Source: Escherichia coli | Lineage (GTDB): Bacteria > Pseudomonadota > Gammaproteobacteria > Enterobacterales > Enterobacteriaceae | Assembly (NCBI RefSeq): GCF_046105845.1 | Contig: NZ_CP151004.1 | Reading direction: 5' to 3' (one strand) | DNA length: 64,000 bases | Shown here: in pieces, positions 31,991 through 58,591 of the stretch | Layout of the letters: each line of letters opens with the position of its first letter | Numbering within the stretch: position 1 is the stretch's first letter | Notes under the pieces: model-generated | Told to the model about the DNA's origin: nothing | Databases searched by the model: none | Seen by the model: the letters and a program-made list of their open reading frames with translations, nothing else | Translations under genes and position numbers: made by a program

Positions 31991-34270
31991 ATGGATGACC
32001 AGTTAAAACAAAGTGCACTTGATTTCCATGAATTTCCAGTTCCAGGGAAAATCCAGGTTTCTCCAACCAAGCCTCTGGCAACGCAGCGCGATCTGGCGCT
32101 GGCCTACTCACCAGGCGTTGCCGCACCTTGTCTTGAAATCGAAAAAGACCCGTTAAAAGCCTACAAATATACCGCGCGCGGTAACCTGGTGGCGGTGATC
32201 TCTAACGGTACGGCTGTGCTGGGGTTAGGCAACATTGGCGCACTGGCAGGCAAACCGGTGATGGAAGGCAAGGGCGTTCTGTTTAAGAAATTCGCCGGGA
32301 TTGATGTATTTGACATTGAAGTTGATGAACTCGACCCGGACAAATTTATTGAAGTCGTCGCCGCGCTCGAACCAACCTTCGGCGGCATCAACCTCGAAGA
32401 CATTAAAGCGCCAGAATGTTTCTATATTGAACAGAAACTGCGCGAGCGGATGAATATTCCGGTATTCCACGACGATCAGCACGGCACGGCAATTATCAGC
32501 ACTGCCGCCATCCTCAACGGCTTGCGCGTGGTGGAGAAAAACATCTCTGACGTGCGTATGGTGGTTTCCGGCGCGGGTGCTGCAGCAATCGCCTGTATGA
32601 ACCTGCTGGTCGCGCTGGGTCTGCAAAAACATAACATCGTGGTTTGCGACTCAAAAGGCGTTATCTATCAGGGCCGTGAGCCAAACATGGCGGAAACCAA
32701 AGCCGCATATGCGGTGGTGGATGACGGCAAACGTACCCTCGATGATGTGATTGAAGGCGCGGATATTTTCCTGGGATGTTCCGGCCCGAAAGTGCTGACC
32801 CAGGAAATGGTGAAGAAAATGGCCCGTGCGCCAATGATCCTGGCGCTGGCGAACCCGGAACCGGAAATTCTGCCGCCGCTGGCGAAAGAAGTGCGTCCGG
32901 ATGCCATCATCTGTACCGGCCGTTCCGACTACCCGAACCAGGTGAACAACGTTCTTTGCTTCCCGTTCATCTTCCGTGGCGCGCTGGACGTTGGCGCAAC
33001 CGCCATCAACGAAGAGATGAAACTGGCGGCGGTACGCGCGATTGCAGAACTGGCCCATGCGGAACAGAGTGAAGTGGTGGCTTCAGCTTATGGCGATCAG
33101 GATCTGAGCTTTGGTCCGGAATACATCATTCCAAAACCATTTGATCCGCGCTTGATCGTTAAGATCGCTCCTGCGGTCGCTAAAGCCGCGATGGAGTCGG
33201 GTGTGGCGACGCGTCCGATTGCTGATTTCGACGTCTACATCGACAAGCTGACGGAGTTCGTTTACAAAACCAACCTGTTTATGAAGCCGATTTTCTCCCA
33301 GGCTCGCAAAGCGCCGAAGCGCGTCGTTCTGCCGGAAGGGGAAGAGGCGCGCGTTCTGCATGCCACTCAGGAACTGGTAACGCTGGGGCTGGCGAAACCG
33401 ATCCTTATCGGTCGTCCGAACGTGATCGAAATGCGCATTCAGAAACTGGGCTTGCAGATCAAAGCGGGTGTTGATTTTGAGATCGTCAATAACGAATCCG
33501 ATCCGCGCTTTAAAGAGTACTGGACTGAATACTTCCAGATCATGAAGCGTCGCGGTGTCACTCAGGAACAGGCGCAGCGTGCATTGATCAGTAACCCGAC
33601 AGTGATCGGCGCGATCATGGTTCAGCGTGGCGAAGCCGATGCAATGATCTGCGGTACGGTGGGCGATTATCATGAACATTTTAGCGTGGTGAAAAATGTC
33701 TTTGGTTATCGCGATGGCGTTCACACCGCAGGTGCCATGAACGCGCTGCTGCTGCCGAGTGGTAACACCTTTATTGCCGATACATACGTCAATGACGAAC
33801 CAGACGCAGAAGAGCTTGCGGAGATCACCTTGATGGCGGCAGAAACTGTTCGTCGTTTTGGTATTGAGCCGCGCGTGGCTCTGTTGTCGCACTCCAACTT
33901 TGGTTCTTCTGACTGCCCGTCGTCGAGCAAAATGCGTCAGGCGCTGGAACTGGTCAGGGAACGTGCACCAGAACTGATGATTGATGGTGAAATGCACGGC
34001 GATGCAGCGCTGGTGGAAGCGATTCGCAGCGACCGTATGCCGGACAGCCCTTTGAAAGGTTCCGCCAATATTCTGGTGATGCCGAACATGGAAGCTGCCC
34101 GCATTAGTTACAACTTATTGCGCGTTTCCAGCTCGGAAGGTGTGACTGTCGGCCCGGTGCTGATGGGCGTGGCGAAACCGGTTCACGTGTTAACGCCGAT
34201 CGCATCGGTACGTCGTATCGTCAACATGGTGGCGCTAGCCGTGGTTGAAGCACAAACCCAACCGCTGTAA
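31991..34270 (+). CDS. maeB: NADP-dependent malic enzyme MaeB (malic enzyme plus PTA-like C-terminal domain)
   Basis: 759 aa; N-terminus [28 protein letters not shown]. Confidence 0.96.
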
Positions 34271-55245: not shown

Positions 55246-56670
<1,425 letters not shown>

Positions 56671-56673
56671 GGG

Positions 56674-57570
56674 TTATTCCTTGTCTAAAACCTGACGAAT
56701 AAAGCCGCCGTGTTGATCCAGGCGTTTTTTAGCTTCTGCGGCATCGAGATTTTTCAGCACCATCACAATGGCCGTTTTACAGTTGCGCTCGCAGGCAACC
56801 AATGCCGCTTCCGCTTGCTCTGCGCTACATCCGGTAGCGTTTTTGACGATATTGACCTGGCGCACATGCAGTTTTTCGTTGGTGGCGACCACATCGACCA
56901 TCAGGTTGCCGAACACTTTGCCGGATTTAATCATCAGCCCGGTGGAAAGCATATTGAGCACCAGTTTCTGCGCCGTGCCTGCTTTCATTCGCGAAGAACC
57001 GGTGACTACTTCGGCACCTACAATCGGTGTAATGGCAAACTCTGCGGTGGTTGAAACGGCGCTCCCCGGATTACAGGAAATTCCCACTGTGCGGCAGCCG
57101 AGCTGGCGCGCGTATTCCAGTCCGGCAATCACATACGGCGTACGACCGCTGGCGGCAATACCGACCACCACATCCTGCGCGGTTAAGCCGATATTTTTCA
57201 GATCATTAATACCACCTTCCCGGCTATCTTCCGCGCCTTCCACCGCGTGCTGAATGGCATATTCGCCGCCAGCAATCAAACCAACCACCAGACCCGGTTT
57301 CACGCCGTAGGTCGGCGGGCATTCGCTGGCATCCAGAATCCCCAGACGACCTGATGTTCCCGCACCGAGATAAATCAGACGCCCACCGCCGCTTACCTGG
57401 GCGTGGATAACATCGATCGCCGCGGCGATATCCGGCAGTACGCGCTCAACGGCAAGCGGCACGGTTTTATCTTCATCGTTGATAATCCGGCACATTTCCA
57501 GCGTCGATACGCGGTCAATTTCAGCCGAGGCGGCGTTCGAGCCTTCAGTAATCATCTTTTCAAGTTGCAT
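56674..57570 (-). CDS. murQ: N-acetylmuramic acid 6-phosphate etherase MurQ (SIS domain)
   Basis: 298 aa ([35 protein letters not shown]...). Confidence 0.95.
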
Positions 57571-57662
57571 CGGTGGTGACCTTACTATTTACGATCAAAT
57601 AATTGCAGATGTATGGAATCATATATCCCGAATTGACAGACTTAAAGGAATCATTGAGTCTA

Positions 57663-57689
57663 CACTCGCAGAGTGTGAAGAGCGTCATA
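57663..57689. promoter_or_regulatory. Candidate CRP site and overlapping inverted repeat (possible MurR operator) in the murQ-murR divergent region
   Basis: TGTGAagagcgTCATA (57674..57689) matches the CRP consensus TGTGA-N6-TCACA with one mismatch; overlapping palindrome acactCGCAGagtgt (57663..57677). Confidence 0.45.
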
Positions 57690-57733
57690 AGAACTTAAGC
57701 GGAATTTTTGCTGCCAGCCCAGGAGAGTGGAAG

Positions 57734-58591
57734 ATGTTGTACCTGACGAAAATACGCAATGCGGAAAGTGAATTTACCGGGAACGAGCAAAAAATTGCTG
57801 ACTTTCTGCGGGCCAACGTGAGTGAGCTGAAATCTGTCTCTTCGCGCAAGATGGCGAAACAGCTCGGCATCAGTCAGTCGAGTATTGTGAAGTTTGCTCA
57901 GAAGCTCGGCGCTCAAGGATTTACTGAATTGCGTATGGCGTTAATTGGCGAATACAGTGCCAGCCGGGAGAAAACGAATGCCACGGCGCTGCACCTGCAC
58001 AGTTCGATTACCAGTGATGATTCGCTGGAAGTGATTGCCCGCAAACTGAATCGCGAAAAAGAGCTGGCGCTGGAGCAAACCTGCGCGTTGTTCGACTACG
58101 CGCGGCTGCAAAAAATCATTGAGGTCATCAGTAAAGCGCCATTTATCCAGATAACGGGCCTGGGCGGGTCGGCGTTGGTGGGGCGCGATCTTTCATTCAA
58201 ACTGATGAAAATTGGTTATCGTGTGGCCTGTGAAGCTGACACGCATGTACAAGCCACCGTTTCCCAGGCGCTAAAAAAAGGCGATGTACAAATCGCTATC
58301 TCTTACAGCGGCAGTAAAAAAGAGATTGTCTTGTGCGCCGAGGCAGCACGAAAGCAGGGGGCAACGGTGATTGCCATTACCTCGTTAACCGATTCCCCGC
58401 TGCGGCGGCTGGCGCATTACACCCTCGATACCGTTTCTGGCGAAACCGAATGGCGTAGCTCGTCGATGTCCACCCGCACGGCGCAAAATTCTGTTACCGA
58501 TTTACTGTTTGTTGGCCTTGTGCAACTCAATGATGTGGAGTCATTGAAAATGATTGAGCGCAGCAGTGAGCTAACACAACGCCTGAAATGA
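57734..58591 (+). CDS. murR: RpiR-family transcriptional repressor MurR
   Basis: 285 aa from ATG 57734 preceded by AGGAGAG; N-terminal helix-turn-helix, C-terminal SIS domain. Confidence 0.92.

Follow-up and report, generated by a model that had tools for sequence, protein, structure and literature searches.

The murQP promoter of Escherichia coli resembles class I CRP-dependent promoters, of which malT, with a site near -70.5/-71.5, is an example: like these it has one CRP site only, located some 70-71 bp ahead of the start, a weak -35 and a conserved helical phasing. It differs from them in that candidate repressor operators are placed between the CRP site and the -10, and the contact with the alpha C-terminal domain is one that we infer. 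With RpiR-family (HTH_6-SIS) repressors, such as HexR and RpiR, the system shares the palindromic 15-bp operator type (here the candidate GGAATCAnTGATTCC), two candidate operators on one helical face and a repressor that is tetrameric and responds to a sugar phosphate, yet the candidate operator sequence is specific to MurR orthologues. The closest design with truly overlapping sites is that of Vibrio cholerae, where the CRP and HapR sites of the murQP promoter overlap with their centres offset by 1 bp, and where a class II CRP complex has been modelled (eLife 2023, PMC10328515). The operon is of the same type, is activated by CRP and has a second factor that represses it from nearby the CRP site, but in E. 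coli the candidate repressor boxes lie at least 12 bp from the CRP core, and the only palindrome that overlaps this core is not conserved. The nearest relative is the murQP/murR control region of E. coli K-12 itself, which is the same locus, with the same curated CRP site and the same divergent repressor MurR (HTH_6 + SIS). Nothing of substance differs between the two; the allele described here deviates at positions 57640 and 57708 of the spacer, and the body of its murR gene is divergent. That murQP is controlled jointly by MurR and by CRP at this site is already known, having been published in 2008 (Jaeger & Mayer, J Bacteriol 190:6598) and curated in RegulonDB. In the passages of PMC9177960 that cite Jaeger & Mayer 2008, MurR represses murQP and itself, its tetramer binds two adjacent or neighbouring repeats in the murR-murQ spacer, and MurNAc-6-phosphate releases it. 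Passages of the citing literature likewise credit Jaeger & Mayer 2008 with cAMP-CRP binding and crp-dependent activation on murQP control DNA.

In the segment studied here we recognize the known region from which E. coli controls its MurNAc catabolic divergon, composed of the divergent murQP and murR. The window, i.e., the whole 64,000-nucleotide stretch of E. coli DNA that was analysed, exhibits the gene order yfeW, murP, murQ, spacer, murR, ucpA, cysP, as established from a list of its ORFs and from BLAST searches of complete E. coli genomes, and the gene context proposed by an earlier sequence-only reading, with murQ and murR diverging around the spacer, is thereby correct. The main elements are:

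55246-56670, minus strand: murP
56674-57570, minus strand: murQ, CDS of the MurNAc-6-phosphate etherase
57571-57733: murQ-murR spacer, 163 bp
57734-58591, plus strand: murR, CDS of the RpiR-family repressor, with HTH_6 and SIS domains

The spacer differs from that of E. coli K-12 at two positions only, 57640 (A/G) and 57708 (T in the window, A in K-12), and experiments performed in K-12 thus apply directly to it; the corresponding MG1655 coordinate is 2603343 minus the window position. The body of murR (57800-58500) is unusually divergent, being only about 93-98% identical to most E. coli murR genes next to a spacer that is nearly that of K-12. Identity falls between 90 and 95% in 3475 of 4379 E. 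coli records, and the best record reaches 98.4%.

For comparison, species-representative genomes were scanned for MurR, which provided 22 loci, 14 of them (L004-L017) enterobacterial and from seven genera. The sample comprises five Escherichia, four Citrobacter, S. enterica arizonae, Pluralibacter, Enterobacter, Lelliottia and Huaxiibacter, the last four genera having MurR homologues that are 54-56% identical. Thirteen enterobacterial loci were used; L004, a metagenome bin labelled Citrobacter sp., has a MurR 100% identical to that of the window and was omitted from the alignments. Three conserved islands emerge from the aligned spacers: TGGAATCATATAT at 57614-57626, GAATCATTGAGTCT at 57648-57661, and GAGTGTGA...TCA at 57671-57687.

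The last of these islands contains the CRP site, which is considered here together with the murQP promoter:

57674-57689, centre 57681.5: CRP binding site core TGTGAAGAGCGTCATA, class I activator site of murQP (curated match, PWM and conservation)
57611, minus strand: murQP transcription start, from SMRT-Cappable-seq (PMC6131387, Supplementary Data 2; entry b2428|b2429, 2545732, forward)
57618-57623, minus strand: predicted -10, TATGAT, of the main promoter of murQ, at a distance of 7 nt from the start at 57611 on its upstream side
57641-57646, minus strand: predicted weak -35, TTTAAG, with a 17-bp spacer to the -10
57650, minus strand: second start, of a murQ-murP-yfeW transcript, from SMRT-Cappable-seq (PMC6131387; 2545693, forward)
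57662..57657, minus strand: possible -10, TAGACT, for the start at 57650

The sequence-only reading had described a CRP-like 16-mer with one mismatch to TGTGA-N6-TCACA, and TGTGAAGAGCGTCATA is found exactly at 57674-57689 with that single mismatch. Sites with at most one mismatch to this consensus number 5 in the 64-kb window against 1.64 expected; scaled from the window, the chance expectation for the 163-bp spacer is about 0.004, i.e., roughly a 0.4% event. In a CRP PWM built from 67 other RegulonDB CRP sites, TGTGAAGAGCGTCATA scores 10.07 bits, ranks 8 of 63,985 window positions and exceeds 75% of the curated sites used in the matrix. The CRP dependence of murQP, which the same reading had named, is borne out by the RegulonDB CRP sites in Table S4 of Shimada et al. 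2011 (PMC3105977), where murQP is listed with an activator site at -71.5 and -79.5 and the core TATGACGCTCTTCACA. This core is the exact reverse complement of 57674-57689, and the site is therefore the curated murQP activator site. In ten aligned Enterobacteriaceae taxa TGTGA-N6-TCA[A/T]A is invariant and the central N6 varies freely; a footprint of this kind, with fixed half-sites around a drifting centre, is classical for CRP sites.

The position of the site is equally characteristic. From the cap-selected start at 57611 (the transcription start being column 2 of Supplementary Data 2) the CRP centre lies at -70.5, and the -71.5 of RegulonDB implies a start at 57610; both values fall on the class I spacing (near -61.5, -71.5, -82.5 or -92.5). 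The two hexamers were assigned from the letters of the spacer alone. A weak -35 such as TTTAAG is typical of activator-dependent promoters. In the original abstract of 2008 the promoter of murQ is reportedly said to have a "class I site" upstream of it, and the -70.5 position agrees with this wording. In all 12 relatives with an exact GAATCAT in the first conserved island, TGTGA follows this first GAATCAT at a distance of 57-59 bp; this near-constancy is consistent with a constraint from class I helical phasing, for which it would be expected. Counted from the other start, 57650, the CRP centre would fall at -31.5, a position that our preferred model does not explain, and this cap-selected start and the second promoter of RegulonDB (-79.5) disagree in position. 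The Cappable-seq supplements of 2016 contain no entry for the murQ-murR spacer region.

Two further observations concern the activation of murQP. The chitobiose operon chbBCARFG has a curated CRP site, TGTGAAGAGGGTCATA at -83.5, that is identical to TGTGAAGAGCGTCATA in 15 of 16 positions, and the likeness extends into the normally free central six bases; both operons are involved in amino-sugar catabolism. A Shigella flexneri RNA-seq study describes murQP as induced anaerobically in an FNR-dependent manner. The spacer (57571-57733) contains no FNR-like site, TTGAT-N4-ATCAA, with two or fewer mismatches, and the FNR effect on murQP may thus be indirect.

The other two islands overlap candidate MurR operator boxes, which are located by conservation and a PWM:

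57615-57629, centre 57622, at about -12: candidate MurR box 1, GGAATCATATATCCC, containing the murQ -10
57647-57661, centre 57654, at about -44: candidate MurR box 2, GGAATCATTGAGTCT, just upstream of the murQ -35

The centres of the boxes are 32 bp apart, and box 2 ends 12 bp before the CRP core. In box 1 TGGAATCATATAT and in box 2 GAATCATTGAGTCT are invariant in Escherichia and Citrobacter. As a palindrome, box 1 is poor in E. coli, with 4 of 7 pairs, and perfect in S. enterica arizonae, where it forms the 15-bp palindrome GGAATCATATATTCC. In relatives the two boxes come close to perfect 15-bp symmetry or reach it. Perfect GGAAT-N5-ATTCC palindromes occur in Salmonella and Citrobacter, where an extra GGAATTTTTGATTCC or GGAATTAATGATTCC is found near murR. 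A MurR-box PWM derived from Citrobacter and Salmonella boxes only (consensus GGAATCAaTGATTCC) ranks box 2 first (18.1 bits) and box 1 second (14.9 bits) of 63,986 window positions, a test that is partly independent, since boxes 1 and 2 of the relatives are orthologous to those of the window and only the third boxes near murR form its independent part. The third-best match in the window, GGAATACATCATTCC (13.8 bits), lies at 33118-33132 inside a 759-aa ORF on the plus strand (31991-34270) and is probably due to chance. Boxes 1 and 2 are thus conserved, dyad-symmetric, in phase with one another and overlapping the murQ promoter. Judging from conservation, motif and geometry, the MurR operators are most likely these two conserved GGAATCAT boxes at 57615-57629 and 57647-57661, an assignment consistent with the statement on two neighbouring repeats in the relevant passages of PMC9177960.

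In S. enterica arizonae a CRP site and candidate MurR boxes, arranged as in the window, directly adjoin a 361-aa ORF between murR and murQ (L011, 1213-2298, minus strand). It has a signal-peptide-like N-terminus and ends in ...YEF, and it has no match in Pfam or NCBIfam. By eye, its sequence looks like that of an outer-membrane beta-barrel protein, and it may represent a MurNAc-related porin under MurR/CRP control. The same gap of roughly 1.9 kb between murQ and murR is seen in a Citrobacter (L012) and in Enterobacter chuandaensis (L014).

Taken as a whole, the explanation that we hold to be highly probable is that CRP acts at 57674-57689, that MurR acts at the two 15-bp boxes, and that the palindrome noted by the sequence-only reading is a by-product. 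In the mechanism that we propose, cAMP-CRP bound at 57674-57689, some 70.5-71.5 bp upstream of the start at 57610/57611, is the activator of murQP, as curated, and would recruit RNA polymerase in the class I manner by way of the alpha C-terminal domain; the promoter so activated has a good predicted -10 (TATGAT) but a poor predicted -35 (TTTAAG). Repression would proceed through the two imperfect 15-bp palindromes of the GGAATCAnTGATTCC type rather than through the palindrome of the earlier reading. MurR at box 1 would cover the -10, and MurR at box 2 would sit directly upstream of the -35, where the alpha C-terminal domain would dock. As 32 bp corresponds to three helical turns, one tetramer could hold both boxes; a single MurR tetramer bridging them on one face of the helix would block the promoter and uncouple it from CRP, until the inducer MurNAc-6-phosphate releases the repressor. 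The compact switch suggested earlier is retained in that activator and repressor sites are close together, but these would be adjacent rather than overlapping, because 12 bp separates box 2 from the CRP core.

Control of murR offers another possible role for the CRP site. Its candidate elements are less certain:

57576-57603, plus strand: candidate murR promoter by consensus only, GTGACC-16-AATAAT, from a promoter scan; it would face the murQ promoter
57701-57715: weak and uncertain third MurR-box-like sequence, GGAATTTTTGCTGCC (PWM 9.1 bits, rank 10 of 63,986)

In the abstract of Jaeger & Mayer 2008 the murQ and murR promoters are reportedly face to face, a layout that the candidate promoter at 57576-57603 fits; the published start data searched contain no transcription start for murR. 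The third box-like sequence is absent from the other Escherichia clades, and the GGAAT-N5-ATTCC near murR in Citrobacter and Salmonella is at a different position. This third sequence and a conserved TATGCTGC-like block at 57707-57714 overlap; the letters of the block in the window are TTTGCTGC. Position 57708 is T in the window and in Escherichia sp. MOD1-EC7003, and A in K-12, other Escherichia, Citrobacter and Salmonella. The surrounding TAT(G/C)CTGC block resembles a -10 just upstream of murR, and if it is the murR promoter, the T at 57708 would weaken it.

The CRP site might chiefly control murR, either as a roadblock to a rightward murR transcript or because it overlaps the -35 region of a murR promoter that employs the TATGCT block (57707-57712 in K-12). 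The conservation of TAT(G/C)CTGC in Escherichia, Citrobacter and Salmonella speaks for such a promoter, as does the location of the CRP centre about 38-40 bp upstream of the start predicted from the block, and a roadblock effect of CRP on murR was reportedly proposed in 2008. A distance of -38 to -40 is, however, not the canonical class II position, the block reads TTTGCT in the window and thus lacks its key A, and in RegulonDB the site is entered for the activation of murQP. As its principal function, control of murR by this site is therefore unlikely; a secondary effect of CRP on murR is compatible with the two-box explanation, alongside which it fits without replacing it.

A different role was proposed by the sequence-only reading for the palindrome, whose pairing varies among the aligned relatives as follows:

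57662-57676: palindrome ACACTC-GCA-GAGTGT (6+3+6), judged to be a chance feature of the K-12-type allele
K-12-type allele: 6/6 pairs
One Escherichia strain: 5/6 pairs
E. coli SCPM-O-B-8794, Escherichia sp. E1V33 and E. whittamii (MurR 96-98% identical): 3/6 pairs
Citrobacter, Salmonella and four other genera: 0-2/6 pairs

The palindrome is present, one base away from where it had been placed (57662-57676, not 57663-57677), and it overlaps the CRP core, with which it shares the 3 bp TGT (57674-57676). It had been put forward as a candidate MurR operator, so that MurR and CRP would compete directly for DNA. Its perfect 6+3+6 symmetry and its abutment on box 2 are in favor of such a role, and the "two adjacent/neighbouring" repeats in the passages of PMC9177960, taken literally, could be box 2 plus the palindrome. 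The comparative data argue against it. Every change falls in the left arm, whose loss extends from Escherichia strains that have a 96-98% identical MurR to every other genus, and no compensatory substitution is seen among the aligned taxa; the right arm, GAGTGT, is constant because it forms part of the CRP flank and half-site. The palindrome scores -7.5 bits with the MurR-box PWM and bears no likeness to GGAAT-N5-ATTCC. Its dyad symmetry is also not beyond chance, as judged from dinucleotide shuffles of the 163-bp spacer: inverted repeats with arms of at least 5 bp and loops of 0-10 occur 1.57 times per shuffle, at least one being present in 72% of shuffles, and arms of at least 6 bp are found in 27% of shuffled spacers, overlapping the fixed CRP site in 3.5%. 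A literature full-text search for the sequences of the site, the boxes or the palindrome found nothing relevant. The operator role must be considered very improbable. We judge instead that the palindrome merely occupies the 12-bp gap from box 2 to the CRP core, where in K-12-type alleles the CRP flank would happen to complement a spacer sequence that is not conserved.

A composite, overlapping CRP/repressor site of the V. cholerae kind was likewise rejected, as the candidate MurR boxes and the CRP site are centred 27.5 and 59.5 bp apart and the sole overlapping dyad is not conserved. The perfect dyad could also represent a recent extra contact, confined to K-12-type alleles, that lengthens the footprint of the MurR tetramer, taking it past box 2 and into the CRP half-site, or that serves another factor. 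We give this even less credence than the conserved operator role; if true, it would imply direct repressor-activator competition in K-12-type strains that is absent from other Escherichia. Least credible of all is an RNA hairpin in the murR 5' leader, transcribed from a promoter facing murQ and affecting the stability or translation of murR mRNA, a reading that was rejected although the 6-bp hairpin lies within the MFE fold of 57610-57745 and murR reportedly starts upstream of the palindrome region, since the leader folds no better than shuffled sequences (z = +0.45), the stem is unconserved and devoid of compensatory changes, and Rfam gives no match.

The retention of the two candidate boxes can also be followed in strains that have lost the repressor gene. 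A murR match is missing from 1048 of 5426 complete E. coli genomes, about one fifth, and a single deletion-junction allele accounts for 1047 genomes, being at least 99% identical in 1035 of them (window 57661-58545; L002/L003 2601-2879). The carriers include ST131, Seattle 1946, O127:H6 and APEC O2:K1:H4, which we take to be B2-type strains. In the two murR-less loci L002 and L003, only a short pseudogene fragment is found between murP and yfeX, at the place of yfeW in the window. The allele retains both GGAATCAT boxes and the murQ promoter while murR is gone, and the candidate operators are thus orphaned. It also carries a TGTGA at the exact offset of the CRP half-site from box 2 (L002 2691-2725, compared with window 57661-57695). 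This TGTGA appears to derive from degenerate codons of the murR 3' end (window 58521-58560) and not from the original site. The resulting TGTGATGTCACTGAAA has 7.84 bits by the CRP PWM, above the median of the curated sites; a CRP site may have formed here anew, or the likeness may be coincidental.

The comparative data presented here give a site order for the control region of murQP, with CRP at -71, box 2 at -44 and box 1 at -12, the latter two being candidate operators of the GGAATCAnTGATTCC type. Annotations of the spacer should not label the palindrome a MurR operator. The loss of murR with retention of the boxes may be of interest for research on cell-wall recycling in pathogenic E. coli.
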